Below, piece by piece: positions 12,218 to 63,361 of a DNA stretch of 64,000 nucleotides. This DNA is from an uncultured archaeon. Lineage in GTDB: Archaea; Thermoproteota; Bathyarchaeia; Bathyarchaeales; Bathycorpusculaceae. The notes under the pieces are model-generated. The model was given only the letters and a program-made list of their open reading frames with translations, had not been told where the DNA came from and did no database searches. The DNA lies in NCBI GenBank assembly GCA_963810275.1, contig CAWENF010000027.1, positions 23,655 to 87,654 on the forward strand, given 5' to 3'. A program made the translations under genes and the position numbers. Numbering within the stretch: the first letter of the stretch is position 1; each line of letters opens with the position of its first letter.

Positions 12218-12652
12218 GTGTTTAATATGTCGTGGCTAAAATCTATGATGGAAAAAGAACCACCAGAACCAGAGAATCCATTAGGCATTGTCGTTATTGG
12301 TAACATTGAACCAGACATGCATGACACAGCCAAAGAAGCAGTACGCAGATCACTAAAACGCGCAGGCTTCAAAACCATCGATGTCGGAAAAAGTGTCGCA
12401 CCACAGGTCTTCATTGACAAGGTAAAAGAAAACAACGCAAACCTAATCGCACTCTCAGTCAACACTGTCCCAGCAAAGAACAACCTATCAAAACTAGACG
12501 AACTACTCAAAGCAGCAGGTCTGAAAGACAAAGTCGGCATCATCATGGGCGGCGCAGCCGTTAAAAAAGAAGATGCTGATGCGTTTGGTGCACTCTTCGG
12601 CAAAAACAAAGAAGAAGCTCCAGAGCTGGCAAAGAAAGCAATTAAGCAATAA
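12218..12652 (+). CDS. Stand-alone cobalamin (B12)-binding corrinoid protein
   Basis: GNIEPDMHDTAK (DxHxxG-like), IDVG, IALS, IMGGAAV Rossmann B12-binding motifs. No N-terminal cap domain. Confidence 0.88.
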   Translation: MFNMSWLKSMMEKEPPEPENPLGIVVIGNIEPDMHDTAKEAVRRSLKRAGFKTIDVGKSVAPQVFIDKVKENNANLIALSVNTVPAKNNLSKLDELLKAAGLKDKVGIIMGGAAVKKEDADAFGALFGKNKEEAPELAKKAIKQ

Positions 12653-12671
12653 TCCATCAGAAGTGGAATAA

Positions 12672-13583
12672 ATGTCCTTTAAGTTCAACACAGAACAAAA
12701 AATATTCGAAATTGGGAATGCCAAAATTGGCGGTCAGCCAGGCGAAAACCCTACTTTCTTAATCGGTTCCATCTTCTGGTTAGGCCAAAAAATGGTTCAA
12801 GATGCAAACAAAGGCATCTTCGACGCCAAAGCTGCAGAAGATATAATTAACCGGTGCCAAACACAAAGCGACATCACAGGCGTTAAGTTCGCTCTCGACA
12901 TTGTTGGCACAACTGAAACCGCCTTCGAAAAATACATTGACTTCGTCCCCAATCACACTGACGCACCACTTATGCTTGACGCAATGAGTCCAAAGACCCG
13001 TATGGCTGCAGCAAACTTGGCAAAGAAAATGGGCTTAACCGACAGATGCCTTTACAACTCAGTTTATAAAGGCGTTACAGACGCCGAATTAGCAAACCTT
13101 AAAGAAAGCGGCATCAAAATGTCAATTGTTCTCGCTGACGACCCCAAAGACACAACTCTCGAAGGCAAAATGAACGTTATCGTTGAAGCATTAGCCCTCG
13201 CAGAGAAAGGCGGAATCACCAAACCACTCATCGATACAGCAATCCCCGCATTCGAACCAGACATGGGCACATCCGTCAGAGCAATAACCATCATGAAGGA
13301 AAAGTATGGTTACCCAGTCGGATTAGGCAGCGGAAACGTTGTCACAACCATGGGTTGGGTCAAAGCAAACTTTGAAAAACAATACCGCAAAGGCACAGTA
13401 TGTTCAACAAACACCATCATGCAAATGGCCGGCGCAAACTGGCTCATGATTGGTCCAGCTGAACAAGCTGAATGGGTGTTCCCAGCCGCAGCCATCACCG
13501 ACACATACATTGCATCTGCAGCAGCTGACCTCGGAACAAGACCACTCGAAGAAACCCACCCAATCTACAAAGCTTTCCTGTAA
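12672..13583 (+). CDS. mtrH: MtrH/MtgA-like methylcorrinoid:pterin methyltransferase
   Basis: EQKIFEIGNAKIGGQPGENPTFLIGSIF N-terminus, YNSV, KPLIDTA, KEKYGYPVGLG, GANWLMIGP. No other mtr subunits nearby. Confidence 0.9.
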   Translation: MSFKFNTEQKIFEIGNAKIGGQPGENPTFLIGSIFWLGQKMVQDANKGIFDAKAAEDIINRCQTQSDITGVKFALDIVGTTETAFEKYIDFVPNHTDAPLMLDAMSPKTRMAAANLAKKMGLTDRCLYNSVYKGVTDAELANLKESGIKMSIVLADDPKDTTLEGKMNVIVEALALAEKGGITKPLIDTAIPAFEPDMGTSVRAITIMKEKYGYPVGLGSGNVVTTMGWVKANFEKQYRKGTVCSTNTIMQMAGANWLMIGPAEQAEWVFPAAAITDTYIASAAADLGTRPLEETHPIYKAFL

Positions 13584-13585
13584 AG

Positions 13586-13605
13586 CTTTTCCTTTTCTTT
13601 TCTTT
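13586..13605 (+). terminator. Oligo-T/pyrimidine-rich archaeal terminator after mtrH
   Basis: CTTTTCCTTTTCTTTTCTTT immediately after the stop codon. Confidence 0.5.
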
Positions 13606-13981
13606 GTTTAAAAAACTTGAAAGTGCCCCTTTGAAACCGCTAAGATGGCTAGAAATCGTTGCAGGATACACTTTAGTGACGTTACTCGCCACACTCTTTG
13701 TAACCGCTGAACCGCTTATTTATGTGCGTTACATTTTGGGTTTCGTCTTCGTTGTGTTTCTGCCGGGGTATTGTTTGGTTAACATATTGTTTATTGGTAA
13801 AAACCGAATTGACTTCGTCGAGACTCTTGTGCTTTCTGTAGCGCTAAGTTTCAGTTTAACAGGCTTAATCGGGCTGTTTCTGGGTTTGTCACCCATCGGC
13901 ATTGACTTTGCCTCCATCACTATATCGCTAAACGCCCTTGGTATTTGCTTTAGCCTCCGTGGCTTACATACGAAAAGTTAA
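13604..13981 (+). CDS. DUF1616-like small membrane protein
   Basis: RYILGFVFVVFLPGY..V..LF and E..VLSVALS motifs. Confidence 0.75.
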   Translation: MFKKLESAPLKPLRWLEIVAGYTLVTLLATLFVTAEPLIYVRYILGFVFVVFLPGYCLVNILFIGKNRIDFVETLVLSVALSFSLTGLIGLFLGLSPIGIDFASITISLNALGICFSLRGLHTKS

Positions 13982-13988
13982 GGTGCCT

Positions 13989-15371
13989 CTACCAGTACTT
14001 CAAGTGCAGAGCTCTAAGCAGGTAAGCGCCTGACGTTTTAACCGCAGATTTCCCATAAGTCCCGCCCAACAGCATCATGTGCAGAACGTAGCCTGGTCGG
14101 AGGTAGAAGTCCTGGTATGCTTTAGCTCGTAACTCCGCAAGTTTTTCCATGCTTAACTGAGGGGTTTCGAAGGTTGGACCTGCGGTATCGTAGCGGTCAA
14201 AGTCTGTGACTCGTAGCCACCCGTTTTTGATGACTTCATCATACATTGGCGTTCCCGGGTAGGGGGTGGCTATGTAGAAGCCTACGTCTTCGGGGTTTAG
14301 TGAAGAGACGAATTTGATGGTTTCTTTGGCTGTCTGCTCGGTTTCGCCCGGGAAGCCTAAGACAACATTGGCGATGGTCATTAAGCCGACTTGATGAGCA
14401 GTTTTGTAGGCTTGGCGGGTTTGTTCCAGTTTGATGCTCTTGTTCATTTTGCCTAAAATCAGCTCTGAACCCGATTCGACGCCTAGCCAGACGGCGATGC
14501 ATCCTGCGTTTTTCATGGTTTGCATGAGTTCTCGGTCTACCATGTCGACGCGGGTCCCGCAGTCCCAAATGAGTTTGAGGTTTCGTTTGTGGAGTTCACT
14601 GCAGATTTCCAGTACCCTGTTGCGGTCAACGCTAAACGCATCGTCGTAGAAGGTAACTTGGTCTACGCCGTACTTGTCGTGCACGTATTGCATTTCGTCC
14701 ACAACGTTTTTGGCGCTACGCATACGGTAGCCTCTGCCGAACATGCGAACAGTGCTGCAGAAGTCGCACCAATACACGCAGCCTCTGCTGGAGACGAGTG
14801 GAAAGAGGATTTTGCCGTTATGTCGAAGGTTTTCCAGTGGCAGGAGATGGTGCGCTGGGAATGGCAGGGCGTCAAGATCTTTTATGAAGGGACGGTCGGG
14901 GTTTCGGACGGTTTTGTCGTCATCACGGTAAGTTATGCCCAATATGCCTTTGAGGCTGCTTTGACCCTCAAGCTTCTCAGCCAATTCGAGAAGGGTTTCT
15001 TCTCCTTCGCGTCTGACTACGACATCAAGAGCTGAGTACTCTTTGAGGGCGTTTTCATCCCAGAACGTCCCATGTGAACCACCCAGAGCTGTTGTTGCTT
15101 GGGGCTGGACTTCCTTGGCAATGGTGATTAGTTTCATGGCGGATTTGTAGAGCAGCGTGGTGGCGGTTGCGCCTATGAGGTCGGAGGGTGTTTCTGCAAG
15201 GCGTGTGCGGAAGGTGTCATAGTTTAGGTGGTCAGCTTGGCAATCGATGACGTTGACTTTGTGTCCTGCATTTTCGGCCACGGCGCCCAAGTATGCAAGT
15301 CCGAGCGGTATAAAGGGTGGGTGGCTGTGTACGCTTGGCGGGTATGGCGGGTTAACTAGAGTGATTTTCAT
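13989..15371 (-). CDS. Cobalamin-binding radical SAM enzyme (#1)
   Basis: MKITLVNPPYP...PLGLAYL B12-binding N-domain, GGSH, SRGCVYWCDFC, GVESGS, TPYPGT, FYLRP. Confidence 0.93.
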   Translation of the reverse strand: MKITLVNPPYPPSVHSHPPFIPLGLAYLGAVAENAGHKVNVIDCQADHLNYDTFRTRLAETPSDLIGATATTLLYKSAMKLITIAKEVQPQATTALGGSHGTFWDENALKEYSALDVVVRREGEETLLELAEKLEGQSSLKGILGITYRDDDKTVRNPDRPFIKDLDALPFPAHHLLPLENLRHNGKILFPLVSSRGCVYWCDFCSTVRMFGRGYRMRSAKNVVDEMQYVHDKYGVDQVTFYDDAFSVDRNRVLEICSELHKRNLKLIWDCGTRVDMVDRELMQTMKNAGCIAVWLGVESGSELILGKMNKSIKLEQTRQAYKTAHQVGLMTIANVVLGFPGETEQTAKETIKFVSSLNPEDVGFYIATPYPGTPMYDEVIKNGWLRVTDFDRYDTAGPTFETPQLSMEKLAELRAKAYQDFYLRPGYVLHMMLLGGTYGKSAVKTSGAYLLRALHLKYW

Positions 15372-15587
15372 GTGATTTGCCCCTTGACCTTTGTTTTTAA
15401 TGTTGGAACCCATATAATGCTTTCTTAGTAGATGCAAAGTTTTAGGTTGTATGCTGTTTTTTTTTTAGTAAACAGCAACCGGGGCTGCGTTATCTCCACC
15501 TTAGAGACTAAGCAAGTTTTTGGCGTTTGCGTCCGGTTTGGGTTGTGCTGCCCATTGGTTAGTTGTAGAGATTTGTCCATATGGTTC

Positions 15588-16745: not shown

Positions 16746-18131
16746 TTAGGACAATTTGATGTGCATGGCTCTCAACGCATACGCTGCTGACGTTTTAAGT
16801 CCGCTCCGCCCGTACGTTCCGCCTCTGCGAATCATCTTGAGCATGTAAGCGGGACGCAGATAAAACTTCTGATGTGCTTTGTACTTGATTTCGCGGAGTT
16901 TCTCCATGCTCAAGTCTGGAGTTTCAAACGTAGGGGTTGCGGTGTCATACTTGTTGAAGTCTGTAACTCGTAGCCAGCCGTTGTTGACTACTTCGTCGTA
17001 CATTGGCGTGCCGGGGTAGGGTGTTGCGATGTAGCAGCCAATGTCATCAGGATTTAGGCTGTTGATGAAGTTGATGGTTTCCCATGCTGTCTCTTCGGTT
17101 TCGCCTGGGAACCCAATGACGGCGCTTGCAATCGTCATCAACCCAGATTTCTGGGATATTTTAAAGGCATCCTTGACTTGTTCACGGTTAATTTTCTTGT
17201 GCATCTTGTCTAAGATCTTGGTTGAGCCAGATTCAACGCCGTACCAAACGGTGATGCATCCTGCGTCATGCATATTCTCCAGCAGCTCCTTGTCTACTGC
17301 GTCGACGCGGGTTTCGCAGTCCCACTCCACATTGAGCCCACGTGCTTTAATGTCTGCGCAGAGCTCAAGGGTGTGGTTGCGGTTGATGGTGAATGCGTCG
17401 TCATAGAAGGTGAATTGGCTTTCACCGTACTTTTTGTTAAGCATCTCCATTTCGTCAACGACTTTGTGGGGGTTGCGGACGCGGTAGCCTCTGCCGAACA
17501 TACGAACAGTGCTACAGAAGTCACACCATTGGACGCAGCCGCGGCTAGTGACTAATGGAAAGATGGTTTTGCCCATGCGGTGGAACGCGTCGATGGGCAG
17601 CAAGTGGTAAGCGGGTGAGGGTAAGCTGTCGAGATCCATGAGGAAGGGCCGATCGTCATGACGGATGATTTTGCCTTCTTCGCTGCGAATTGTAGTTCCC
17701 AAGACGCCTTTGAAGTTCTTCTTTTCCTGCATGCGTTTGAGGAGTTCGACGAATGTGGTTTCGCCTTCCCGTCTTACGATGACGTCTATTGATGGGCATT
17801 CGTTTAGGGCGTTTTCATCCCAAAAAGTTACGTGGCTGCCTCCTATCATGGTGGTGGCGTCTGGGTGCTCCTCTTTGGCTGCTTCCATGATGCCTTTAGC
17901 AGAGTTGTACAGCAATGTAGTGGAGGTTACGCCGACGATGTCTGGAGATTCTTTGCTTATACGTTGCTGGAAGGTTTCGACTGTTAAATGTTCAGCTTGG
18001 CAGTCAATGACGTTAACTTCGTGTCCTTCCTTTTCTGCGACTGCTCCCAAGTAGGCGATGCCTAACGGAATGAAGGGTGGGTGAGCGTGAGCGTTAGGTG
18101 GATAGGGTGGGTTGACGAGGGTAACTTTCAC
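16746..18131 (-). CDS. Cobalamin-binding radical SAM enzyme (#2), close paralog of #1
   Basis: MKVTLVNPPYP, SRGCVQWCDFCSTVRMFGRGYR, GVESGS, TPYPGT, FYLRP. Confidence 0.93.
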   Translation of the reverse strand: MKVTLVNPPYPPNAHAHPPFIPLGIAYLGAVAEKEGHEVNVIDCQAEHLTVETFQQRISKESPDIVGVTSTTLLYNSAKGIMEAAKEEHPDATTMIGGSHVTFWDENALNECPSIDVIVRREGETTFVELLKRMQEKKNFKGVLGTTIRSEEGKIIRHDDRPFLMDLDSLPSPAYHLLPIDAFHRMGKTIFPLVTSRGCVQWCDFCSTVRMFGRGYRVRNPHKVVDEMEMLNKKYGESQFTFYDDAFTINRNHTLELCADIKARGLNVEWDCETRVDAVDKELLENMHDAGCITVWYGVESGSTKILDKMHKKINREQVKDAFKISQKSGLMTIASAVIGFPGETEETAWETINFINSLNPDDIGCYIATPYPGTPMYDEVVNNGWLRVTDFNKYDTATPTFETPDLSMEKLREIKYKAHQKFYLRPAYMLKMIRRGGTYGRSGLKTSAAYALRAMHIKLS

Positions 18132-29154: not shown

Positions 29155-29173
29155 TTTGCCAACCCCATATTGG

Positions 29174-29392
29174 CTACTTCTTGGGGGTTGCCGCATTTAA
29201 AGTGATGGCTTTGTTAGGGCACAGGTTCACGCAGATGCCGCACCGGGTGCACTGTACCACCTCGATGATTTGGGGTTTGCGGTTTTTGCCTTCTTCAATT
29301 GCACCCACTGGACAAACACCGATGCAAATTTGTCCTATACAAGGCGGGCACTTGCTTAAGTCGACGTTTATGGGTGCCTTCTGTTTGTCCAT
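29174..29392 (-). CDS. 4Fe-4S dicluster ferredoxin
   Basis: CPPC.GQIC.GVCP and CTRCGICVNLCP. Confidence 0.88.
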   Translation of the reverse strand: MDKQKAPINVDLSKCPPCIGQICIGVCPVGAIEEGKNRKPQIIEVVQCTRCGICVNLCPNKAITLNAATPKK

Positions 29393-35553: not shown

Positions 35554-35558
35554 ATAAA

Positions 35559-36839: not shown

Positions 36840-36840
36840 C

Positions 36841-43619: not shown

Positions 43620-43691
43620 TCAAAAAATAATGTTCAGTTCTAATCCTTTAGATTTTCGCTAAAAACAAAAAATAAAATTAAGAAAAGAAAT

Positions 43692-49041: not shown

Positions 49042-49193
49042 TAAGAGTTCCCCAATTGTGGTATTAACAGAAAACACGGTGTGCGAAGCTATATCTTTTA
49101 CTAAAACCCACCTTTACTCAGCGATGTCGGCGTTTTCCGCAAGGTTTTATATTTTGTGTTCTTCTCTAGCGCCTATTCGGGAGAGAAGATTAT

Positions 49194-51209: not shown

Positions 51210-52679
51210 CTAACGCTGCTTCGGCTTCCTCAAAACTATCCCAACCATCTGGACAGTACGCCGCGGATTACGCACAGCCTTAGCGATTTTATGCCGTGTC
51301 AAAGTCCGATTAATCGCATTAGCCCGCACACACAACTCCATTAATTCGTCTGCGCTCCACTCAGGCGTTTCCACCAGTGGCTCCGTCGCCGCCAACGCAT
51401 AATCACAGAAGCCATCTCGAATGAAGCCGCCCGCCTTTGCCTGCTCATAAAACGCAGTTCCATAAAGCGGCATGGCAATGCTGAAAATGAAGCTTTCCGC
51501 GCCGAGTTTTTTGAGTTTGTAAGCATACTGGATTGTCGCTTCAATGTCTTGTTTAGTTTCGCCGATTAAGCCTAAAACAAAGAAGCAGCCGACCTTTATG
51601 CCAACTTTCTTACACAACGCCACCGCCGCCTCAACCTTGGCTAAGTCCAATCTTTTTTTGGCGACTTCAGTGACAATACGTTGTACGCCTGATTCTGGGG
51701 CTAGACGGATTTTTCTGCATCCTGCCTGCTTCATTTTGCGAAGCAAGTCCTCGTCAAGGGTGTCTGCTCGAACGCCATTTGGTGTAAACCACTCAAATCG
51801 CAAACCGCGCTCCACGATTAAGTTACATATCTGTTCCATGCGTCCTCTGTTCCAGGTCATGTTGTCGTCTGCGAAATCCACTTGTTGTATACCGTAGGTT
51901 TCTATGACGTGCTGGATTTCGTCTACCACGTTTTTAGGGCTGCGTGGACGCCACTGTTTACCCCAGATGATGCTGTGGGTGCAGAAGACGCAGTTAAAGG
52001 GGCAGCCGCGGCTTGTGATGATGATGGTGTAGGGTTTGGTTATTTCTCCTCGTAGCGGGTTTTGTTTGACTGCTTGGGCGTAAACGTTCATGGGTAAGAG
52101 GTGTCTTGCGGGTATTGGCAGTGTATCTAAATCCTGAATCGCTGCGCGCTTTTTTGTGAAAACAGTTTTGCCGCCTAACCTGAAGCTTAAGCCTTCGATA
52201 ACGGTGAAATCGGTTTTTTTCTGCTCCAGCGCCTCAAGTAACTCCGAAACAGTGACTTCTGGCTCCCCCACAACCACAAAGTCCACCTCTGGGTTTTCCA
52301 TGCACTGCTTTGGTCGCGAAGATGGATGCAAACCAAACAGTACCACCCGAATGTCTTTGTCGACCTTCTTAGTGATGGACACAACTTCGAATGCGGTTTT
52401 GGACCACCCCGAAAAAGGGATTTCCACGGCTACCACATCAGGTTTCCAGTCAGCAATCCGCTGAGCGATGGTTTCGGCGCTTAATCCCACCCGGTACTTG
52501 GACTCGTCCAGTTCAAGGAGGTTTTCCCAACCCTCTGTTGGGGCGTCAATGATGCTGACTGTATACCCATTTTTTTCCAGAACCGCAGCCACCGACGCCA
52601 TTGCTATGGGTGGAAAAACGTTGGGTTTTCCCCATGCTTTAGGCTGAATCCTTGGTGGATTGATGAGGCAAACACGCAT
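51210..52679 (-). CDS. Cobalamin-binding radical SAM enzyme (#5), more divergent
   Basis: MRVCLINPP, GLHPS, SRGCPFNCVFC, PNGVRAD, APESG, MPLYGT. Confidence 0.92.
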   Translation of the reverse strand: MRVCLINPPRIQPKAWGKPNVFPPIAMASVAAVLEKNGYTVSIIDAPTEGWENLLELDESKYRVGLSAETIAQRIADWKPDVVAVEIPFSGWSKTAFEVVSITKKVDKDIRVVLFGLHPSSRPKQCMENPEVDFVVVGEPEVTVSELLEALEQKKTDFTVIEGLSFRLGGKTVFTKKRAAIQDLDTLPIPARHLLPMNVYAQAVKQNPLRGEITKPYTIIITSRGCPFNCVFCTHSIIWGKQWRPRSPKNVVDEIQHVIETYGIQQVDFADDNMTWNRGRMEQICNLIVERGLRFEWFTPNGVRADTLDEDLLRKMKQAGCRKIRLAPESGVQRIVTEVAKKRLDLAKVEAAVALCKKVGIKVGCFFVLGLIGETKQDIEATIQYAYKLKKLGAESFIFSIAMPLYGTAFYEQAKAGGFIRDGFCDYALAATEPLVETPEWSADELMELCVRANAINRTLTRHKIAKAVRNPRRTVQMVGIVLRKPKQR

Positions 52680-52736
52680 TAAGCTGGCACTTCTGTGAAA
52701 AATCATTAGCTTAGGAGGGTGATTTATTGTTTTGCA

Positions 52737-54139: not shown

Positions 54140-54580
54140 ATGGAGCAGCAGGAACTAAACGGAACCCTCTTTAGCACATACGTTTATCTGGTCAAAGCAG
54201 CCAGACCTGTCGGACCCAGAGACCTCATGCGAGGAGCAAACCTCAGCAGCCCAAGCGTAGCCTACCGTAACCTACAGCGCCTAACCGACCTCGGCATTGT
54301 CGACAAAGATAGTTATGGCAGCTACATCGTAAAAAAGAAAGTGGGCTTGCGCGGCTATGTCTGGATTGGCAGAAAGCTTGTTCCCCGCTTCGCCATTTTC
54401 GGTTTCATATTCGTCGGTGTCGTAATCACTGAACTCGCCGTTTTGGTTCCGCACTTGCTGTTGGGCTCGCCAATTCAGGAATCATTCTGGCTCCTCACAG
54501 TAGTTACGGTTGTGGCAGCGGCGATTTTCTTATTCGAGGGCTTAAGGTTTAGAAAAAAGCCCCATACTCGCAACGATTAG
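54140..54580 (+). CDS. wHTH transcription-factor-like protein with two C-terminal TM helices, paralog of 33753-34211
   Basis: VGPRDL...NLSSPSVAYRNLQRL..LG...KD.YG.Y followed by two TMs. Confidence 0.8.
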   Translation: MEQQELNGTLFSTYVYLVKAARPVGPRDLMRGANLSSPSVAYRNLQRLTDLGIVDKDSYGSYIVKKKVGLRGYVWIGRKLVPRFAIFGFIFVGVVITELAVLVPHLLLGSPIQESFWLLTVVTVVAAAIFLFEGLRFRKKPHTRND

Positions 54581-55962
54581 CTTCTGCGCAGCTTTAGTTT
54601 GATGTTGGCAACGAAGTGCATTCCAACAATTATTGCAGTTTGAACTTTGAATCGATGGCGTTTATCCCACCAGAACCCTTTGCGCAGGTAGAAGTGATGG
54701 AATGCGCTCTCACGCATCTTACCGAGATCTTTCATGCTGAACTGTGGCGTCTCAAAAATTGGGCGCGTCGTGTCGTACTTGTCAAAGTCCGTGATTCGCA
54801 GCCAGCCGTTGGCTTTCACTTGGTCGTAGAGCGGCGTGCCCGGAAACGGCGTCGCAACGTTGTAGAAGCCCACTTGATCGGGAGCGATTTTCTCTATGAA
54901 CTTGATTGTTTTCCACGCGCTCTGCTTGGTCTCGCCGGGGAACCCTAAAATGACGTTTGGGGTGGGCTTTAAGCCGACTTCTTGGACCCAGGCGATGACT
55001 TTTTCTGTCAACTCGGGAGTAATGCCTTTTTTCATGGCGTCCAGGACTTGCTGGGTGGCGGATTCAACGCCAAACCACACTGAAACGCAGCCCGCATCCT
55101 TCATGGTTACTAGCAGGTCTTTGGTTATCATGTCGACGCGGGTGCCGCAGTTCCACTCGATTTTGAGGTTGCGTTTCTTGATTTCGCGGCACAACTCTTC
55201 CACGCGGGGTTTGTCTACAGTAAAGGCGTCGTCGCAGAATGTGAACTTGGTTTTGCCATAAGTCTTGTAGAGGTCCTCTATTTCGTCTACGACGTTTTTG
55301 GCGCTTCTCATGCGGTAAGCACGTCCATGCATGCGTACGGTGCAGCAGAATTCACACCAGTATACGCAACCCCTTGTCATGGCGAGGTAGAGAACATCTT
55401 CGTACTGGGTGAACTTGTCCATAGGCCACAGATGCCTTGCCGGGAAGGGCAGGCTGTCAAGGTCCTCGATGTAGGGGCGCTCTTTGTTGCGTACTATTTT
55501 GCCGTCTTTGCGATACGTGATGCCCAAGACGTCGTCGAAACTTTTGCCCTCTTCAACGTGCCTAACCAAATCAACAAGGGTGGCTTCGCCTTCCCTGCGT
55601 ATAACAACATCTAGCTCTGGGTAGTCTTCTAAGGCGTGGTCATCCCAGAACGTGACGTGAGGTCCGCCTGCGAAAGTGACTACGTTTGGGAGGACTTCTC
55701 GGGCGGCTTGGATGAGTTTCATGCCTGACTTGTAGGTTAGCGTGGAGCTGGTTGCCCCCACAATGTCTGGTTTTCGCTTGGCAATTTCTGCTTTGAACTC
55801 GTCTAGGCTCATCTGTTGAACTTGGCAGTCGATGACGTCGACTTGATAGTTGCTTTTCTCTAAAACCGCAGCCAAATAACCTAAGCCGAGAAGGGCGAAG
55901 GGCCAGTGCATGACTGCGCCTGCGGGTGCAGCGGGGTTAACCAAGGTAATGTGAGGTTTCAT
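54577..55962 (-). CDS. Cobalamin-binding radical SAM enzyme (#6), same subclade as #1 and #2
   Basis: ITLVNP, LGLGYLAA, GGPHVTFWD, RGCVYWCEFC, TPFPGT, GWLRITDFDKYDT. Confidence 0.93.
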   Translation of the reverse strand: MKPHITLVNPAAPAGAVMHWPFALLGLGYLAAVLEKSNYQVDVIDCQVQQMSLDEFKAEIAKRKPDIVGATSSTLTYKSGMKLIQAAREVLPNVVTFAGGPHVTFWDDHALEDYPELDVVIRREGEATLVDLVRHVEEGKSFDDVLGITYRKDGKIVRNKERPYIEDLDSLPFPARHLWPMDKFTQYEDVLYLAMTRGCVYWCEFCCTVRMHGRAYRMRSAKNVVDEIEDLYKTYGKTKFTFCDDAFTVDKPRVEELCREIKKRNLKIEWNCGTRVDMITKDLLVTMKDAGCVSVWFGVESATQQVLDAMKKGITPELTEKVIAWVQEVGLKPTPNVILGFPGETKQSAWKTIKFIEKIAPDQVGFYNVATPFPGTPLYDQVKANGWLRITDFDKYDTTRPIFETPQFSMKDLGKMRESAFHHFYLRKGFWWDKRHRFKVQTAIIVGMHFVANIKLKLRRS

Positions 55963-56091
55963 GTTTGCTTCACGCTGTAGGCATTTTACTTTATGCATGG
56001 TTATGTAGTTAACTGTCCTCTTAGGGGTTTTCTCAAACTATTTAAATTCGCAGAGGCGTTTAATGCATGCTAAATCGGGAGAAGTCTGGCT

Positions 56092-56904
56092 TTGCAAAGC
56101 GACCAAGCATTCCGTAACCAAATTCACGAGGCAAACGTTTCAGTGCATCGACTCGAAGCTCAATATTACGAGCTTTTGCATCCGGAAGTTTATAGCAGAA
56201 AAGAGCAGCAGCGCGTTTGGCGTCAACTACACGCTGTAGACAAGCAAATCACGAATAACCAGAAGCGGGCTTTGGATGTTGGCGCTGGTACGGGAAACTT
56301 GACTGGGAAACTGCTGGAGATGGGCTACAGTGTGGTTGCTACGGATATATCGCCTGAAATGTGTGGCATTCTAAAGAAGAAATACTGCAAGTACCTCCTA
56401 AGCAAGTTATCGGTGTTTAATTCTCCTATTGAAGACCTCCACTTCAAACAGGGCGAATTCGATTTGGTATGCGCCTACTCAGTTCTTCATCACCTTCCAG
56501 ACTACGCCTCGGCGCTGACAACATTATGCGCCTACGTCAAGAAAGGCGGTGTCGTCTACATCGACCACGAAGCATCGCCGTCGTACTGGAGAAACGAAAA
56601 AAGTATGCTCTCAAGCATAGTTAAAGGCTTAACCTTCCACTCCAACCCCATAATAAATAGCTTCTACTTCCAAATCATCGGCTTACATTTCCCAAACATT
56701 GACTACACGCTGTCAGATTATTGGCATAAAAAAGGTCACGCCCTAAACCACCAAACCCTTGCAGCGGTCTTTAAGCAGCAGGGTTTTCGCAGCTATCGCC
56801 GATTTGACCACTTCTTAACCGGCACTTGGCTCCCCAACCCTCTCGCATACGTCTACCGCTTGGTCTGTAGGCCTGAGATGAGTTTATGGGTAGCTCAAAA
56901 ATAG
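56092..56904 (+). CDS. Class I SAM-dependent methyltransferase
   Basis: LDVGAGTG, DISPEM, FDLV....VLHH. Confidence 0.9.
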   Translation: MQSDQAFRNQIHEANVSVHRLEAQYYELLHPEVYSRKEQQRVWRQLHAVDKQITNNQKRALDVGAGTGNLTGKLLEMGYSVVATDISPEMCGILKKKYCKYLLSKLSVFNSPIEDLHFKQGEFDLVCAYSVLHHLPDYASALTTLCAYVKKGGVVYIDHEASPSYWRNEKSMLSSIVKGLTFHSNPIINSFYFQIIGLHFPNIDYTLSDYWHKKGHALNHQTLAAVFKQQGFRSYRRFDHFLTGTWLPNPLAYVYRLVCRPEMSLWVAQK

Positions 56905-58239: not shown

Positions 58240-59664
58240 GTGCCTAAAAAAATCAAACTCCAAACCACCTCCCTGCCCAAACCGCAACGGGTTCTACTCA
58301 TGACAACGGCGCCCCCCGAAAAAGACACATGGTACCACGGCAAACGCCTACCTCCAATCGGCTTAATGTATGTGGCTTCCTCGCTTGAAAAAGCAGGGTT
58401 TGAGGTGCAGATGCTGGATAACTACCTGCAGAACAAACCCCTAGAAGAAGTCAAACAGTTAATTGCAGATTTTTCGCCTTCACTGGTCGGAATCACCTGC
58501 GGCTCCGCAACATACAAGCGATGCGTCGAAACCGCCGCCGCCATAAAAGAAGCTAAACCTGACTGCACAGTAGTTGTGGGCGGCTGGCACGCTTCTTACC
58601 TGCCTGACACATTGCTGTCTCACCCTGAAATAGACTACGTCGTGATGGGCGAGGGCGAACGAGCTATGACCAAGCTTGCAGACGCTCTAATAGCTGGAGA
58701 CTTAGAAGCCGCTTCAGCTGTTGCAGGCGTTGCATGCCGCGGACCCGACGGAAACATCCGCAACCCGCCCGTGTATATCGAGAACATGGATGAAATCCCC
58801 TACCCTGCACGCCATCTGCTGCCGCTGGAACAGTACAGCCGCATCGTGGAATTCCTAAACGCCAAACCAGCCGACATAATGAGCATCAGCCGTGGCTGCG
58901 TTTTTAGCTGCGGATTCTGCGAAACCCGCAAACTCTGGGGAAACATCTGCCGAGGTTTTAGTCCACGGCGGGTGATTGGCGAAATTGAGGATTTGCAGAG
59001 GCGGTTTGGCACTAAGGGCATTTACTTTATCAACGACAACTTTACTCTGCGCAAAGAGAAAACCAAAGAACTCTGCCGCCTTATGATTGAGCGGAATCTG
59101 GGGTTGGAGTGGGTGTGCGATACCCGTGTGGATTTGGTAGATGATGAGCTTTTGGAGCTTATGAGCAAAGCGGGGTGCAAAGTCATCTGGTTCGGCGTCG
59201 AATCAGGTTCGCCCAAGGTGCTAAAGCGTATCGGCAGAAACACCACGCCAGCCCAAGTAGAAGAAGCGTTTAACCTGTGTAAGAAGCACGGCATAAAAAC
59301 TGCCTGCTCATTCATGATAGGCTTACCCGACGAAACATTAGCCGACATGGAAGAATCTCTGAAATTCGCCAAAAAAATCGACCCCGACTACTGCCAATTC
59401 AACATATTCATCGCCTACCCCGACAGCCGCCTCTATAACGAACTCTTAGAAAGCGGCAACTATACGCAGCTAGACAATTACCTTCTCAGCGTCAAATCTG
59501 ACGAATACGACTTCGAGTCTTTAAAAGCAGTGCAGTGGCGGTTTTTCAAAAGCTTCCATATGGCCCCCAAACAGATTCTAAAACGCGCCAAACGCGAAGG
59601 CCTCCTGAAATTCGCCAAAAGCCGCTTGATGCATGGAACCAAGAAAGCCAGCGGCATGGCTTAG
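58240..59664 (+). CDS. Cobalamin-binding radical SAM enzyme (#7)
   Basis: PPIGLMYVAS, GGWHAS, SRGCVFSCGFC, GVESGS, AYPDS. Confidence 0.92.
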   Translation: MPKKIKLQTTSLPKPQRVLLMTTAPPEKDTWYHGKRLPPIGLMYVASSLEKAGFEVQMLDNYLQNKPLEEVKQLIADFSPSLVGITCGSATYKRCVETAAAIKEAKPDCTVVVGGWHASYLPDTLLSHPEIDYVVMGEGERAMTKLADALIAGDLEAASAVAGVACRGPDGNIRNPPVYIENMDEIPYPARHLLPLEQYSRIVEFLNAKPADIMSISRGCVFSCGFCETRKLWGNICRGFSPRRVIGEIEDLQRRFGTKGIYFINDNFTLRKEKTKELCRLMIERNLGLEWVCDTRVDLVDDELLELMSKAGCKVIWFGVESGSPKVLKRIGRNTTPAQVEEAFNLCKKHGIKTACSFMIGLPDETLADMEESLKFAKKIDPDYCQFNIFIAYPDSRLYNELLESGNYTQLDNYLLSVKSDEYDFESLKAVQWRFFKSFHMAPKQILKRAKREGLLKFAKSRLMHGTKKASGMA

Positions 59665-60756
59665 GTGAGCTTGATGGATAAGCGGCGGCTTGGGCGAACC
59701 AATTTGATGGTTTCGCAGGTGGGGTTTGGCGGCACATGGATAGCCGAGTTGTCGGCGCCCGAAGCGGTTGAAGTTGTACAGCACGCTCTTGATTTGGGTA
59801 TTACCTATTTTGATACGGCTCGTTGGGATGGGGATAGCGAAGAAAAACTCGGTGCCGCATTACAAGATGTCCGAAGTAAATGCGTTATTGCAACAAAGAC
59901 AGGTAGCCGAACAAAAAAGGAATCGATGGACGACTTCTCAGTTAGTCTCAAGAACCTGCGCACCGACCGTGTTGACATTTTGCAACTTCATGGCATCGAT
60001 GACGAAAAAACGCTTGCAAAAGCCATGGGTGAGGATGGTTCATTGCAGACTTGCAAGCAGGCTCGGCGAGAAGGCTTGGCGGATTTTGTGGGCATCACGG
60101 GGCACAAGCCGCGGGTGCTGGCCAAGGCGGTTGAGACTGGGGAGTTTGACACGGTTTTGGTTCAGTTAAACGTTGTGACTGTGCAGGCGCTTGAGGAACT
60201 GCTGCCAGCTGCCAAGGCGCATGATGTTGGTGTGGTGGCTATGAAGCCATTTATGGCTAAGACCTCGAATTTGATTACTTGCCTGTATCAGCCGTCGCTA
60301 TCGCTAATTAGTGATGAACCCGAACTCAAAGCGTTACTCGGCGACACATCCGATGAGCAGGTAAGTAGCTTGCTTGGTTTTGACCTCTCCCAAGATATCT
60401 CAACCGTAATAGCAGGCGTTAAAAGCCTAAAAGAGGTTGATGCAGCAGCCAAGGCAGGCTACATATATTCAGGTTTGTTAAACGAAGAGCACCGGCGTCT
60501 TAGACCAGATTTAGGCAATTACTGCCGCGACTGCGGAGCCTGCATGCCCTGCCCTGAAAAGGTGAATATTCCCGCTGTGCTGAGGTTCCAAATGTTTGCT
60601 GAGGGTTATGGCTTGAAAGATTGGGTTACTAAACTGTATAGTGGGTTGGAAGTTAAAGCAGATCGGTGTAGTTGTTGCGGTGAATGTGAACCTAAATGTC
60701 CTTATCAGTTGCCTATTGAGCGTAAACTGTGTGCAGCTCACCGTAATCTGGTTTAA
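59665..60756 (+). CDS. Aldo/keto reductase with C-terminal 4Fe-4S dicluster
   Basis: RRLGRT, YFDTA, IATK, LQLHG, GITGH, AMKP; CRDCGACMPC and CSCCGECEPKCP. Confidence 0.9.
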   Translation: MSLMDKRRLGRTNLMVSQVGFGGTWIAELSAPEAVEVVQHALDLGITYFDTARWDGDSEEKLGAALQDVRSKCVIATKTGSRTKKESMDDFSVSLKNLRTDRVDILQLHGIDDEKTLAKAMGEDGSLQTCKQARREGLADFVGITGHKPRVLAKAVETGEFDTVLVQLNVVTVQALEELLPAAKAHDVGVVAMKPFMAKTSNLITCLYQPSLSLISDEPELKALLGDTSDEQVSSLLGFDLSQDISTVIAGVKSLKEVDAAAKAGYIYSGLLNEEHRRLRPDLGNYCRDCGACMPCPEKVNIPAVLRFQMFAEGYGLKDWVTKLYSGLEVKADRCSCCGECEPKCPYQLPIERKLCAAHRNLV

Positions 60757-60993
60757 TTTGGCGGTTTTTTTGCTAAAATGATGGCGCAACGTGCCTTGCT
60801 TATCATAAACTTGGAGGGGCAAGAAAGAACAAAAAATTTTAGCATCAGCATTTGAGGCTGGTTTCTTGCTGTTTTAGGAGAGCTTGTACTTGCAGCTTTT
60901 TTGTACTATTGACGCTTCCGACTCTTTTTAGAGAAATCTTTACATCCACCACAACCACAAATACATACCAGAACCGCTTGGAGAACCCCCCCA

Positions 60994-62418
60994 GTGAGTA
61001 TACTTAGCCATGATACGTTCTGGAACGCTATTGTATCCATGCCCATGACCAAGTGGATGCTCCAGCTCTCACTTAAAAAGTGTCCCGGCTGCGGCAGAAC
61101 TGTGCTGGAGGCGGCATTAGACGACTATGGGGGCAAAGCTGACCAGAAATGCCAAAAATGCAGCCACCTGTACAGTCAAATAGTCGCTTTTTGGATAGAG
61201 TTTCTGCGCAGGGCGCTTGGGTTCAAACGGGCAAAAGTTGAGAAGCTCTTAACTGACCGTTACGCACGAAACGCCGTGCTAAACTTAGTCGAATCCTTCG
61301 CTTACTTCGGCATCAAAAAGCCAATGTCTCTTGTGGCGCCTTTCCTTGTAGTCTGGGATTTCACTCACCGATGCAACCTGCGTTGCAAACACTGCTACAG
61401 CAACTCAGGCGAACCCGACAAAGACGAGTTAACAACCGAGCAGGCACTCAACGTTGTGGACCAACTGGCGGACGCCCACGTAACCGCCTTGGCTTTCAGC
61501 GGCGGCGAACCATTAACCCGACCCGACTTCTTCCAAGTTGCGCGGCACGCCTCTGATCGCGGCCTATACATATCGCTCGCCTCAAACGGCACGCTTCTCA
61601 ACAAGGAAAACGTGGCGAAAATTAAAGCCGCAGGCGTCAATTACATCGACATCAGCATAGATGGCGCCACCGCTAAAACCCATGACGACTTTCGAGGCGT
61701 ACCCGGAGCCTACGACCGAGCCGTTGCGGGACTCAAAAACTGCATTGAAGCAGACATCTGTGTCTGTATAGCTACCACGGTAGGCAAAAACAACATGGTA
61801 GAACTTCCCGCAATCATTGACTTGGCGGAGGAGCTTGGCGTGGAGCGTTTCACCTACTTTAACTTCATACCCGCGGGTAGAGGGAAAAGTCACGTTGACC
61901 AGGATCTTTCGGCGGCTGAGCGTGAAGAAGTTATGCGTTATCTCTTGAATCGGATGTCGGCGGGCTGTAAAACCACAATCCTCGCTACGGCACCCCAGCT
62001 TGCCCGTGTCGCAGCTCAGTGCCAAGGGGACTCCGATACGGGTGAAGTTACAATGGCGTTGGCTCATATGCAAACCGTTAAAGTTACCAAAAAAGCTGTC
62101 CCGCTAGGTGACTTCATAGGTGGATGCGGAGCTGGGCGTCTCTATTGTGCCATCAGTCCTCAGGGTGATGTGCGTCCATGCGTTTTTCTGCCTGAAAACG
62201 TAGGCAACCTCAAAGACCGTAAATTCAAAGACATCTGGCTCAATGCGCCACTTTTCAATGCTTTTCGCAACCGTGCCAACCTCAAAGGCAGCTGCAGCAT
62301 ATGCGACTATAAGTTCATCTGCGGAGGCTGCCGAGCACGCTCTGCGGCTTACCACGGCGGGGACACCTTAAACGGCGACCCAGGATGCCTGCAAGGAGTT
62401 AAGAATAATGCCCGTTAA
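60994..62418 (+). CDS. Radical SAM/SPASM enzyme with Cys-rich N-terminal extension
   Basis: CPGC...CQKC N-terminus; WDFTHRCNLRCKHC, SGGEPL, GCGAGR, CSICDYKFICGGCRAR...DPGC. Confidence 0.92.
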   Translation: MSILSHDTFWNAIVSMPMTKWMLQLSLKKCPGCGRTVLEAALDDYGGKADQKCQKCSHLYSQIVAFWIEFLRRALGFKRAKVEKLLTDRYARNAVLNLVESFAYFGIKKPMSLVAPFLVVWDFTHRCNLRCKHCYSNSGEPDKDELTTEQALNVVDQLADAHVTALAFSGGEPLTRPDFFQVARHASDRGLYISLASNGTLLNKENVAKIKAAGVNYIDISIDGATAKTHDDFRGVPGAYDRAVAGLKNCIEADICVCIATTVGKNNMVELPAIIDLAEELGVERFTYFNFIPAGRGKSHVDQDLSAAEREEVMRYLLNRMSAGCKTTILATAPQLARVAAQCQGDSDTGEVTMALAHMQTVKVTKKAVPLGDFIGGCGAGRLYCAISPQGDVRPCVFLPENVGNLKDRKFKDIWLNAPLFNAFRNRANLKGSCSICDYKFICGGCRARSAAYHGGDTLNGDPGCLQGVKNNAR

Positions 62419-63361
62419 CTCTGTTAGAATCAGCGGTGCAGGTACTGACGTAAGTGAAATTGTAAAAGACGCTGTCAAAAACGCCAACCTGCGAGGCAAG
62501 AAACTCATTTACATTAAACCTAACCTTAGTCACCCCGAGTACCTGCCCGGCGTAGTTACAAGCCCCGACGTAATGCATCAAGTCGTTGCTTTTTTGCGTG
62601 ACCAGAATAGCGAAGTTGTCGTGGGTGAATCTAACGGAATCAACTACCCCTGCTGGACTGCTTTTGACAAGACAGGCGCCCAAGCTGCAGTGGAATCCGC
62701 AGGTGGCAAAGTAATCAACCTCTCAGACGACAAAGTGATCAAAGTCAAATTCGCCACAAACGGTCCCCTCAAACATCTCTACCTTCCCAAAACAGTGCTT
62801 GACGCTGATGCCGTAATCGACTTGCCTCTGATGAAGACACATGAGTTCATGACTTACACGGGCGCACTCAAAAACCTCTTTGGGTGCATTCCAAGTAACC
62901 GCCGCATCTATTTGCATCCGTATCTGCCCGAAGTGTTCTACCGCCTCTATACTGTGTTCAAGCCGGCGCTCACCATAATGGATGCCCGCATTGGTATAGA
63001 GGGTAATGGTCCCACTAAAGGTAAACCCAAAAAAATGGGTTTGTTTTTGACTGGCAATGACGCTTTAGCCGTGGACATAGTTGCTGCTCAGGTAATGAAG
63101 CTTGACTGGAAGAAAACATACCTCAAATACGTCTCTGACAAAGCCGGCTTCAATGGAGATGCAGTCCACGTCGAAGGCTTGCCCATAGAGTCGGTTGCGA
63201 AGCGCTTTGAGTTGCCCACAATTGATTTGCCTGTTAAGATGCAGATGGCAATTTACCAGCACGAGTACGCTACTAAGCTGATGTTCTGCTCACTTGACAT
63301 CATCCACCTGTTTCAAAAGATAACAAAGGCTTATCGAGGTAAGCCTATCGAAGTTGGGTAA
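62408..63361 (+). CDS. DUF362 domain protein
   Basis: IKPNL, VVTSP, P.MKTH....TGALKNLFG, GIEGNGP. Confidence 0.88.
   Translation: MPVNSVRISGAGTDVSEIVKDAVKNANLRGKKLIYIKPNLSHPEYLPGVVTSPDVMHQVVAFLRDQNSEVVVGESNGINYPCWTAFDKTGAQAAVESAGGKVINLSDDKVIKVKFATNGPLKHLYLPKTVLDADAVIDLPLMKTHEFMTYTGALKNLFGCIPSNRRIYLHPYLPEVFYRLYTVFKPALTIMDARIGIEGNGPTKGKPKKMGLFLTGNDALAVDIVAAQVMKLDWKKTYLKYVSDKAGFNGDAVHVEGLPIESVAKRFELPTIDLPVKMQMAIYQHEYATKLMFCSLDIIHLFQKITKAYRGKPIEVG

Follow-up and report, generated by a model that had tools for sequence, protein, structure and literature searches.

The window analysed here (the whole stretch of 64,000 nucleotides) belongs to the 2.26-Mb genome (G000) of a Bathy-6 Bathyarchaeon and carries an island uniting putative membrane-lipid enzymes, many B12-dependent radical enzymes and a published lignin demethylase system (Table 1). 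Since the window ends with its contig (C27), the island is truncated on the right side. A Pfam search of the window identified seven genes with B12-binding and radical SAM domains (B12-rSAMs), three SPASM genes and one HemN-like gene, all 11 proteins having the CxxxCxxC motif, which bears out the count of a preliminary description made from the sequence alone. Pfam and NCBIfam models also recovered MetK, CbiZ, CbiB, the corrinoid protein, MtrH, RnfD/RnfC, the Fe-S aldo-keto reductase, DUF362, the class I methyltransferase, the amidohydrolase, the CN hydrolase and the Asn-synthase domain where that description had placed them; its ferredoxin is the small one of Table 1. Genome-wide, 41 PF04055 matches were above the cut-off in 2.26 Mb, and 37 once three from contig C28 and one copy of a duplicated pair were dropped. 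Against 0.8-0.9 radical SAM genes expected in 51 kb (more exactly 0.84-0.93), the island has 11 (P(≥11) ~4e-10 to 1e-9), and the richest 51-kb segment in 20,000 random placements contained at most nine; the density exceeds the genome mean by far. Contig C28 duplicates positions 34224-47679 at 84-96% identity and probably comes from a second strain in the bin (bin contamination 4.45%).

Table 1. Features of the island in window coordinates, with families assigned from sequence or predicted structure.
Feature	Position	Strand	Basis
Large multi-pass membrane protein, GT-C candidate, first of pair	7458..9659	-	~10 TM segments; DUF6541 match in orthologue
Second GT-C-like membrane protein, frameshift-split (9779-11419 + 11247-12119)	9779..12119	-	PMT_2 E 4.5e-6
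MtgC, stand-alone corrinoid (B12-binding) protein	12218..12652	+	PF02310; D-x-H motif
MtgA, MtrH-type methyl-pterin:corrinoid methyltransferase	12672..13583	+	TIGR01114 272.1 vs cut-off 271.4
DUF1616 membrane protein	13604..13981	+	Pfam; the "membrane protein" between mtgA and mtgB in published cluster
B12-rSAM 1, Gmm-like	13989..15437	-	E 6e-90 to B12-rSAM adjoining V. distributa gms
B12-rSAM 2	16746..18131	-	62% to B12-rSAM 1; E 6e-76 to V. distributa stand-in
Bacterial-type MetK	24000..25172	+	TIGR01034 553 vs 309
MtgB family protein	25929..26831	-	Termini like those of published MtgB_2 primers
CbiZ adenosylcobinamide amidohydrolase	28165..29196	-	PF01955 E 2.5e-43
Small ferredoxin, 72 aa, two Cys motifs	29174..29392	-	Kept in relatives
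Second MtgB-family protein, predicted glycoside-hydrolase-like TIM barrel, invariant Cys set	29452..30336	+	36% to 25929 protein
Carbon-nitrogen hydrolase	30362..31249	-	PF00795
Asn-synthase C-terminal-domain amide ligase	31368..32351	+	PF00733
AhbD-like rSAM/SPASM 1, without Gms extension	32526..33638	-	TIGR04545 205 vs 500; E 2e-40 to V. distributa Gms
RnfD-like membrane protein (orphan; frameshifted here) and RnfC	34427..36839	+	Pfam/NCBIfam
Two tandem membrane proteins, ECF S-component-like predicted fold	37025..38368	+	Structural matches
HemN-like (class C type) radical SAM, best family ChuW/HutW	38452..39756	-	TIGR04107 176 vs 400
B12-rSAM 3, Gmm-like	39857..41272	-	E 7e-82 to V. distributa stand-in
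PQQ-repeat beta-propeller surface protein	41367..43619	-	Pfam; hydrophobic segments at N- and C-terminal ends
AhbD-like rSAM/SPASM 2, without Gms extension	43692..44789	-	NCBIfam, Gms comparison, tree
Second PQQ-repeat beta-propeller protein	45406..47565	+	Pfam
B12-rSAM 4, Gmm-like	47566..49077	-	E 2e-72 to V. distributa stand-in
Amidohydrolase (Amidohydro_3)	49194..50739	+	Pfam; frameshift confined to this assembly
B12-rSAM 5, most divergent; best family Sden_1168	51210..52706	-	NF038361 240 vs 575
Island CbiB, second copy in genome	52737..53760	-	Pfam; frameshift confined to this assembly
B12-rSAM 6, Gmm-like	54577..55998	-	E 7e-86 to V. distributa stand-in
Class I SAM methyltransferase	56092..56904	+	Pfam
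B12-rSAM 7	58240..59664	+	E 5e-75 to V. distributa stand-in
Aldo-keto reductase with C-terminal Fe-S domain	59665..60756	+	Pfam
Putative GMGT synthase (Gms orthologue), AhbD-like rSAM/SPASM	60994..62418	+	N-terminal extension ~115 aa
DUF362 Fe-S-family protein, directly after gms	62408..63361	+	Pfam

The first gene of the GT-C pair lies beyond the coordinates of the preliminary description, yet belongs to the block; its product has a 29% orthologue in the corresponding region of genome G611. Several genes are frameshift-split here and whole in relatives, namely those for RnfD, the amidohydrolase and CbiB and the genes at 9779-12119 (a single ORF of 730-820 aa in relatives) and at 18324. The splits are most likely assembly errors, since the relatives have whole genes, contigs of other runs are without the indels and housekeeping genes of contig C26 are also split. 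The comparison with other runs covered RnfD, the amidohydrolase and CbiB, the indels being missing from contigs of two or three of the four other public runs (per gene, at low depth).

Co-inheritance was surveyed in 79 genomes of the order, split by B12-rSAM expansion into 35 with (5 or at least 6 HpnJ-like matches; 8 genera, 2 families) and 44 without (0-4 matches). Each of seven markers occurred in 30-35 of the 35 expansion genomes and in at most one of the others: the HutW-like gene and island-type MtgA (at least 46% identity) in 35/35 vs 0/44, the S-component-like gene in 34/35 vs 0/44, the RnfD-like gene in 33/35 vs 0/44, two CobS copies and island-type Gms (at least 53% identity) in 34/35 vs 1/44 each, and MtgB in 30/35 vs 1/44. 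The genomes are kin, and 35 vs 44 represents few evolutionary events, not 79. The gene set and much of its order are conserved in nine congeneric genomes as well as in other genera; in the complete B. tardum genome the island lies within one 66-kb stretch, and in several other genera it is broken into pieces. Four to five B12-rSAM orthologue groups are common to both families. Orthologues are syntenic and not scattered in related genomes, and the island is one conserved, co-inherited unit of about 25 genes, present or missing as one block in Bathyarchaeia, which are common sediment and soil archaea.

The corrinoid protein, the MtrH protein and two genes previously called hypothetical are, by their sequences, members of the published MtgC/MtgA/MtgB O-demethylase family. 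The N-terminus of MtgC (MSWLKSMM) is identical to what the published forward primer for MtgC encodes. The protein at 25929, probably translated from the TTG at 26831, starts with (M)KFGTFLY and has RWEKLYF at its C-terminus, compared with MKFGMFIY...DKWESILD from the published MtgB_2 primers; it has 53% identity to a G611 protein starting MKFGMFIY. For its paralogue at 29452 the predicted AlphaFold structure (pLDDT 95) was nearest to Cwp19 (Z 20.4, rmsd 3.7, 253 aligned) and the PgaB GH domain (Z 19.3). In two distant families MtgB homologues form part of operons for cobamide salvage, and in a third the homologue is divergent from a gene for cobalamin adenosyltransferase. Others stand alone in Bacteroidales, Thermaerobacter and a haloarchaeon, where reading of ORF starts revealed no corrinoid partner. 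The Asn-synthase-domain amide ligase adjoins cobamide-salvage genes in a distant family as well.

The gene at 60994 aligns with Gms of V. distributa (WP_013335538) at 41% identity over residues 18-466 (E 3e-116), including the N-terminal extension, with a clade support of 0.984; on this evidence it agrees with the published description of Gms and is a Gms orthologue. Relatives keep the gms-DUF362 adjacency. In three complete genomes (G014, G003, G611) the block runs on through GT4-GT2-GT2, CobD, CobY, CobS, an epimerase and UbiA (DGGGP-synthase-like) to the tetraether synthase Tes. The same series in identical order ends contig C14 of G000, where Tes passes NF045702 (459 vs 450); from the relatives' gene order we infer that C27 and C14 join, and a search for an overlap between them found none. 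Of the 44 island-less genomes 23 carry Gms-like genes; in island-less relatives such as G252, G059, G246, G194, G033 and G090 a Gms-like gene directly adjoins one B12-rSAM. Because of this frequency, and as Tes is expected broadly, presence of Gms and Tes alone is not special.

Relation of the B12-rSAMs to Gmm was assessed with a cut-off of 1e-65, using as stand-in query the protein adjoining V. distributa gms; six of the seven pass, at a lenient cut-off that two non-island B12-rSAMs of G000 nearly reach (5e-64 and 3e-65). B12-rSAM 5 misses it (1e-57), and B12-rSAM 7 reaches 1e-57 to 1e-64 with three other gms-adjacent proteins. Those passing scored only 1e-28 to 1e-50 with two Sulfolobaceae-type B12-rSAMs, and two B12-rSAMs of other Thermoproteota that are not gms-adjacent (L138, L139) usually gave better scores than the Gmm stand-ins did, with L138 reaching up to E 2e-116. 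Deep branches of the B12-rSAM tree had supports of 0.23-0.76. The island B12-rSAMs likely belong to Gmm2; GrsA/B, HpnP/R and BchE, suggested earlier as kin, were not the closest relatives among those tested. No radical SAM enzyme of the island reached an NCBIfam equivalog cut-off, and none was placed in a family of unrelated known function.

Of the supply functions proposed earlier, that of MetK as a dedicated SAM source did not hold, since no other SAM synthetase was found in G000 and the B. tardum island is without MetK. MetK is absent from the G611 region, and PF01941 (archaeal SAM synthetase) from G000, G003 and G014; in the window MetK is surrounded by inserted housekeeping genes (CinA, HtpX, GPN GTPase, DUF4443). 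With the Rnf complex the island shares the RnfD-like protein, often fused to a [4Fe-4S] ferredoxin domain in relatives, and RnfC; RnfA/E and ApbE, sought in five genomes, were found in none, so that Rnf is incomplete and the pair does not make up an Rnf complex. The proteins at 37025..38368 matched no Pfam model, and their predicted structure (pLDDT 68) had S components in all of its top 11 matches (Z 8.5-11.6), making them candidates for vitamin or precursor uptake. For archaeal cobinamide salvage and nucleotide-loop assembly G000 holds the full set (CbiZ, CbiB, CobD, CobY, CobS, CobZ, CobT), and whole orthologues of the island CbiB clear the TIGR00380 equivalog cut-off (237-241 vs 165.9). 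The island differs in its second, divergent set (32-47% identity between the two; island CobS 99.5 vs a cut-off of 110, canonical CobS 155). The canonical cobamide locus often adjoins the island.

Membrane lipids, one of the substrates considered earlier, are now the best-supported substrate class. The block may be a cobamide-dependent module which makes and tailors a tetraether membrane lipid, its core and probably its polar head, possibly including a butanetriol (BDGT) backbone methylase; we hold this tetraether/glycolipid reading at even chances. BDGT is reported as the biomarker of Baizosediminiarchaeum (PMC12694404, a review available in part), from which the published mtg cluster comes. 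The DGGGP-synthase-like enzyme and Tes would form the tetraether and Gms, to judge from its orthologues, would bridge two chains. Five to nine Gmm-like B12-rSAMs in separate orthologue groups may then each introduce a methyl group or other radical change at one position of its own, in the chains, the glycerol backbone (giving butanetriol or pentanetriol tetraethers) or the head group. The weakest step is the third, in which GT2/GT4, the epimerase, amide ligases and divergent copies of CobD/CbiB/CobY/CobS could produce either a head group with sugar or a special cobamide. CbiZ, the S-component-like proteins, RnfD-Fe-S, the ferredoxin and the Fe-S reductase would supply and reduce the corrinoid. 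The co-occurring MtgA and MtgC would shuttle methyl between methyl-H4MPT and a corrinoid, and MtgB may feed in methoxy groups, as published, yet is dispensable.

Many parts of the island (CbiZ, the second CobD/CbiB/CobY/CobS, the HutW-like and two AhbD-like proteins, the S component, and CbiA/CobB in the G611 region) fit a corrinoid or tetrapyrrole product more naturally. The block might make a second cofactor, a cobamide or tetrapyrrole with chemical modifications. CbiZ and amidohydrolases would open a scavenged corrinoid, which would be re-amidated, C-methylated by B12-rSAMs and the HutW-like enzyme (PDB matches HemN and NocN) at its ring, linker or lower ligand, and closed by the second nucleotide-loop set, with MtgC as client. 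The paired loop sets and CobS copies, the AhbD-like and ChuW/HutW-like best matches, the MtgB homologues in cobamide-salvage operons and retention of the island in the complete genome G003, which is without CbiD, agree with this. We consider it unlikely, as it leaves Gms, Tes, UbiA, the glycosyltransferases and the GT-C pair unexplained and none of the seven B12-rSAMs reaches the BzaD cut-off (92-140 vs 450). To our knowledge, five to nine methylases exceed the needs of any known cobamide variation.

Slightly less likely again is a neighbourhood without any single end product, in which lipid tailoring (by Tes, Gms and one or two Gmm), glycosylation of the surface (by the GT-C pair and GTs), cobamide salvage and O-demethylation are independent of one another and have drifted together through a common need for B12. 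Mixed strands, inserted housekeeping genes, the adjoining cobamide locus, fragmentation in some genera, five island genomes lacking MtgB and one genome (G260) with Gms, two CobS and MtgB but without the other five markers point that way; the finding that genes of seemingly unrelated kinds are nearly always present or absent together, across 35 genomes, and the distinct B12-rSAM groups retained in two families agree better with a functional unit. A catabolic island that breaks down methoxy-aromatics derived from lignin, with demethylation by MtgABC and aromatics processed by radical SAM and PQQ-repeat proteins, would accord with demethylation of guaiacol and vanillin by MtgB_2 and MtgC in vitro and expression on lignin (PMC10989822, available in part), growth of B. 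tardum on methoxylated aromatics (PMC10477458, likewise) and the role proposed for these proteins in PMC11697101. It appears improbable, given that MtgB follows the island less strictly than MtgA, has a glycoside-hydrolase-like model and occurs elsewhere in cobamide operons or alone, and that Tes, Gms and the GTs have no role there. B12-rSAMs moreover are known from biosynthesis, and their use of SAM is stoichiometric. On the lipid-module reading the block is a concrete place to search for enzymes of unusual methylated membrane lipids in Bathyarchaeia.

The system had been called undescribed, which holds only in part; the Mtg genes (Yu et al. 2023, PMC10989822), the Bathy-6 B12-rSAM expansion (PMC11697101) and multi-copy Gmm2 homologues in Bathyarchaeota (PMC11214058, available in part) were already published. 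Judged by primer-encoded termini, the island proteins are those of the Bathyarchaeial Mtg O-demethylase, and the order mtgC-mtgA-membrane protein-mtgB-mtgB (PMC10989822, Table S3) is kept in G611. Unlike the cluster account in the available part of that paper, the Mtg genes here are a single arm of the block, and MtgB homologues beyond Bathyarchaeia contradict its statement that MtgB is confined to them. The Cgm/Pgm GDGT methylases and the Ted desaturase (bioRxiv 10.1101/2025.10.20.683597, available in part), likened to the island candidates by description and not by sequence, are Gmm-related B12-rSAMs acting on tetraether lipids; this group performs methylation and desaturation, and one of them comes from a Bathyarchaeon. 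In the gms-gmm locus (GMGT synthase and GMGT methylase; Garcia et al. 2024, PMC11214058) an AhbD-like rSAM/SPASM gene with N-terminal extension likewise lies near a B12-rSAM, as gene 60994 lies near B12-rSAMs of the Gmm similarity range. That locus has one B12-rSAM and the island five to nine putative ones, together with Tes, UbiA, GTs, cobamide genes and MtgABC, a context not described in the available part of PMC11214058; the block would represent a much-enlarged gms-gmm locus of Bathy-6 and Bathyarchaeum-type Bathyarchaeia.

All 11 radical SAM genes listed for the island in the preliminary description, together with every neighboring gene named there, were located in the window. Their density exceeds the average of the host genome (G000; 2.26 Mb in 28 contigs, 92.6% complete, 41 PF04055 matches over the cut-off): for 11 genes in 51 kb P was ~1e-9, and the maximum in 20,000 random placements was nine. 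By the names assigned to its cluster mates, the host belongs to Bathyarchaeia, close to Bathycorpusculum. The right edge of the window is the end of its contig (C27). Five window genes are frameshifted but intact in relatives; for the three of these that were compared with contigs from four public runs the indels were missing there, and decay of the island was rejected for these three genes. Split housekeeping genes occur elsewhere in the host genome as well. The composition check for a horizontally acquired island returned a GC content of 43-51% with neither a sharp edge nor a tRNA.

The genes had been proposed to belong together, and both synteny and co-occurrence agree with this. Gene set and order were largely retained in the nine genus genomes whose regions were compared, gaps in some of them being ends of the excised region or of a contig, and other genera retain the gene set, partly as separate pieces. 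HpnJ-like cobalamin-binding radical SAM genes (B12-rSAMs) numbered 3-14 per genome in all 24 genus genomes of a first draw. In the complete genome of Ca. Bathyarchaeum tardum (G611) 7/10 B12-binding domains lie within 432-466 kb, and the entire set, from the GT-C pair just left of the island through tetraether synthase (Tes), spans ~66 kb. A class-wide draw of 250 genomes included 79 from the order of the host; 35 of these (eight genera, two families) had from five to at least six HpnJ-like matches, and the other 44 had 0-4. Seven further markers track this split, and the lone exception among the 44, whenever one occurred, was the same genome (G260). Since the genomes are related by descent, the 35 vs. 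44 division shows a block and not 79 independent trials. The B12-rSAMs, which as paralogs within the window share 29-62% identity, sort into stable ortholog groups, four to five of which are common to both families.

Occurrence of seven markers in the 79 genomes of the order of the host, divided by number of HpnJ-like matches; the identity thresholds for "island-type" were set from the result tables themselves
Marker	Island genomes	Other genomes	Remark
HutW-like	35/35	0/44	
Island-type MtgA	35/35	0/44	More distant MtrH homologs in 24 others
S-component-like	34/35	0/44	
RnfD-like	33/35	0/44	
Two CobS copies	34/35	1/44	
Island-type Gms	34/35	1/44	Gms-like gene in 23 others
MtgB	30/35	1/44	

Judged by its sequence, the gene at 60994 is an ortholog of GMGT synthase (Gms), for which C-C bridging of GDGT is predicted. 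Its 474-aa product passes the criteria for Gms (AhbD-like radical SAM/SPASM protein, ≥400 aa, E ≤ 1e-80) with 41% identity, including the extension, to V. distributa Gms (E 3e-116 at a database size of 2.5e11), which was the query used here, the published query being T. guaymasensis Gms. Gms has been described as an AhbD homolog with a 100-aa N-terminal extension (Garcia et al., PMC11214058), and over this extension 60994 can be aligned with four Gms-type proteins of Thermoprotei (the COG4001 criterion, judged by alignment). In a FastTree phylogeny of 36 sequences the Gms clade including 60994 was set apart (support 0.984) from AhbD-like outgroups, which were local genes and not M. barkeri AhbD. 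The other two island SPASM genes do not fit the Gms description. In the genus members G003 and G014 and in Ca. B. tardum the block runs into genes for GT4, GT2, GT2, CobD, CobY, CobS, an epimerase, UbiA and Tes (NF045702 score of 494 in Ca. B. tardum, cut-off 450); in the host the series from GT4 to Tes is arranged likewise and lies where contig C14 ends, no overlap of C27 and C14 being found to prove their join. The GT-C pair had no match to PF02516 (STT3/AglB family) at E 0.001.

Six of the seven B12-rSAMs, numbered from left to right, pass the criteria for the tetraether methylase Gmm (B12-binding and radical SAM domains, ≥400 aa, E ≤ 1e-65) against the protein adjoining V. distributa gms, a stand-in named Gmm by adjacency and by Dataset S2 of PMC11214058; B12-rSAM 5 misses the cut-off (E 1e-57). 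Multi-copy Gmm2 has been reported for Bathyarchaeota (PMC11214058). Two unnamed B12-rSAMs of other Thermoproteota, not located beside gms (L138 and L139), usually outscore the Gmm stand-ins against the island enzymes, and the deep nodes of the B12-rSAM tree, which contained neither a Gmm2 nor a Moek5 reference, were without support. Against two Sulfolobaceae-type B12-rSAMs, which may not be Grs (L136 and L137), E-values were only 1e-28 to 1e-50. No island B12-rSAM reaches the curated NCBIfam cut-off for HpnJ, HpnR, BchE, BzaD, PhpK, Sden_1168 or QCMT (best equivalog scores 203-250 bits vs. cut-offs of 481-750; BzaD profile 92-140 bits vs. 450). A homolog search from B12-rSAM 6 returned close relatives only, and a search of PDB sequences returned distant matches only (best AprD4, E 3e-26). 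In a 66-genome sample, the relatives scoring best with the island enzymes included B12-rSAMs of other Thermoproteota (L108, L109, L111, and L112), each of which adjoins a conserved gene of ~430 aa.

Two of the supply functions proposed in the preliminary description were not borne out. MetK, put forward as a dedicated source of SAM, is the sole SAM synthetase found in G000, G003 and G014 and is missing from the block of Ca. B. tardum. It is of the bacterial type and likely replaced the archaeal SAM synthetase, which was not found in these three genomes; Ca. B. tardum and one further genome (G050) have the archaeal enzyme. For electron supply by Rnf the RnfD and RnfC genes are there, but RnfA/E and ApbE were not found (RnfA/E, PF02508: 0/5 genomes, three of them complete; controls positive 4/14). 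For the tandem membrane genes the top 11 structural rows were S components (model pLDDT 68), with Z 8.5-11.6 falling below the caution level for helical bundles, and ESM gave a lead (0.88) for an ECF S component; these genes may have an S-component-like fold, which we treat as a lead only. Diphthine-ammonia-ligase-like ATPases that score under the family cut-off are found repeatedly next to cobamide genes and within the islands of several genomes; they are possible corrinoid amide ligases.

The island corrinoid and MtrH genes and the MtgB proteins are, going by sequence, members of the published MtgA/MtgB/MtgC O-demethylase family. The published MtgC primer encodes the peptide with which the island MtgC begins, the termini of gene 25929 match the published MtgB_2 primers, and gene 29452 is an additional family member; the identification rests on these primer-encoded termini and on cluster layout, not on full published sequences. 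The order mtgC-mtgA-membrane-mtgB-mtgB of the published cluster (PMC10989822) is also that of Ca. B. tardum. The predicted structure of MtgB (pLDDT 95) matches glycoside-hydrolase-like barrels. The results suggest that MtgA-MtgC belongs to the block, where it may supply methyl groups for biosynthesis.

Location of features discussed (window coordinates unless a contig or locus is given)
Feature	Location	Strand	Observation
TIR domain protein, CAP12/Pycsar type (PF10137)	1488-2324	+	Adjoins island, syntenic in five genus genomes; possible defence or signalling gene
MetK, bacterial type	24000-25172		
Ribosomal protein L35Ae gene	27774-28043	-	Within island
Small protein	33753-34211	-	Apparently winged-helix with two C-terminal membrane segments; conserved in island; candidate membrane-anchored regulator
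Small protein	54041-54580	+	As for 33753-34211
Mid-island stretch	34224-47679		84-96% identical second copy on host contig C28 (L098, 13.6 kb), RnfD intact there; the bin probably contains a second strain
Tandem membrane genes	37025-38368		
300-bp element	63609-63927		Near contig end; four further host copies, ~70% identity; possible mobile-element remnant
Tes	Host C14:165942-167426		Outside window; NF045702 score 459 vs. cut-off 450
Second Tes-like radical SAM	L097:5893-7383 (host C19)		36% to island-linked Tes ortholog
Diphthine-ammonia-ligase-like ATPase	L094:3948-4616		One example

We consider the island to be best read as an enlarged gms-gmm locus that would tailor tetraether lipids and their head groups, a reading that we give an even chance; attached to it would be salvage of corrinoids, electron carriers of low potential and a shuttle for methyl groups. 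All substrates, as well as the direction of methyl flow, are what we infer from the genes. A further-reaching version, possible but doubtful, would have the block encode the complete route to the signature lipids of Bathyarchaeia. At least one Gmm-like enzyme would then be the C-methylase of the glycerol backbone (butanetriol/pentanetriol tetraethers), the second copies of the cobamide nucleotide-loop enzymes would have been repurposed to attach an amino-alcohol-phosphate head group (or a corrinoid) to a lipid or glycan, and MtgA-MtgC would mainly be a biosynthetic methyl supply, perhaps in place of methionine synthase, for which neither MetE/MesA nor a MetH homocysteine-binding domain was found in any of five genomes (G000, G003, G014, G016, and G611). 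Backbone methylation is a reaction of the B12-rSAM type. For Baizosediminiarchaeum, from which the published mtg cluster comes, the butanetriol tetraether BDGT has been reported as the biomarker (review PMC12694404). Were MtgA-MtgC mainly biosynthetic, mtgB would serve poorly to indicate lignin degradation.

Other readings were weighed against the enlarged gms-gmm locus. Nesbo et al. (PMC11697101) reported that conserved genes flank mtgA-mtgC and that each Bathy-6 genome has 7-20 COG1032 genes, which they interpret as lignin metabolism, and MtgB_2 demethylated guaiacol in vitro (Yu et al., PMC10989822), a result that stands and is not overturned by our observations. In the latter paper, O-demethylation of guaiacol/vanillin is demonstrated for one Bathy-8 MtgB_2 only. 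Five island genomes without MtgB retain island-type MtgA; lignin catabolism as the role of the block seems to us quite improbable. A modified cobamide or tetrapyrrole as the product is an unlikely alternative on present evidence. In its favor, the island adds a divergent set of cobamide genes to the canonical one, and MtgB lies inside cobamide-salvage operons in two distant Bathyarchaeia families and beside a cobalamin adenosyltransferase in a third; against it, no island B12-rSAM reached the BzaD cut-off. A part in de novo corrin ring synthesis is unlikely, since the complete genome G003 is without CbiD yet keeps the island; the de novo genes of the host sit on contig C2. The block might also be a mere neighborhood of B12-sharing genes, which we hold to be rather unlikely.

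Of the claim that the system is undescribed, one part stood: the components have already been published separately, whereas the literature searched did not present them together as a single co-inherited unit. In a search covering few subscription papers, none was found to link mtgABC with gms/tes and the B12-rSAM array, or to put a name to a BDGT methylase; part of this gene neighborhood, or a placement of these proteins in Gmm2, may already appear in supplements of PMC11697101 and PMC11214058. Two claims on Bathyarchaeia that are unconnected in the literature found, lignin O-demethylation and unusual tetraether lipids, hinge on this locus, mtgB serving as an environmental marker and BDGT as well as methylated and bridged GDGTs serving as biomarkers. 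The analysis provides a short list of enzyme groups that are found in a cultured species and expressible in existing archaeal hosts, which opens both the identity of the BDGT methylase and the interpretation of the "Gmm2" expansion to direct tests. It also predicts which genera produce these lipids, and gives a specific reason to doubt what MtgB mainly does.

MtgB-family genes at the loci and proteins L085, L088-L093, P0059 and P0061 belong to Bacteroidales, a Chlorobiota bin, Thermaerobacter, Dethiobacter and a haloarchaeon, and no corrinoid partner was seen there. A role of MtgB as a cobamide enzyme everywhere was unsupported, eight loci outside Bathyarchaeia being without obvious cob neighbors (ORF starts read). 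Among 401 Thermoproteota genomes MtgB was present in 25, all of them Bathyarchaeia. The published MtgB family is described as confined to Bathyarchaeia in PMC10989822, whereas homologs were found here in Dethiobacter, other Bacillota, Bacteroidales and a haloarchaeon.
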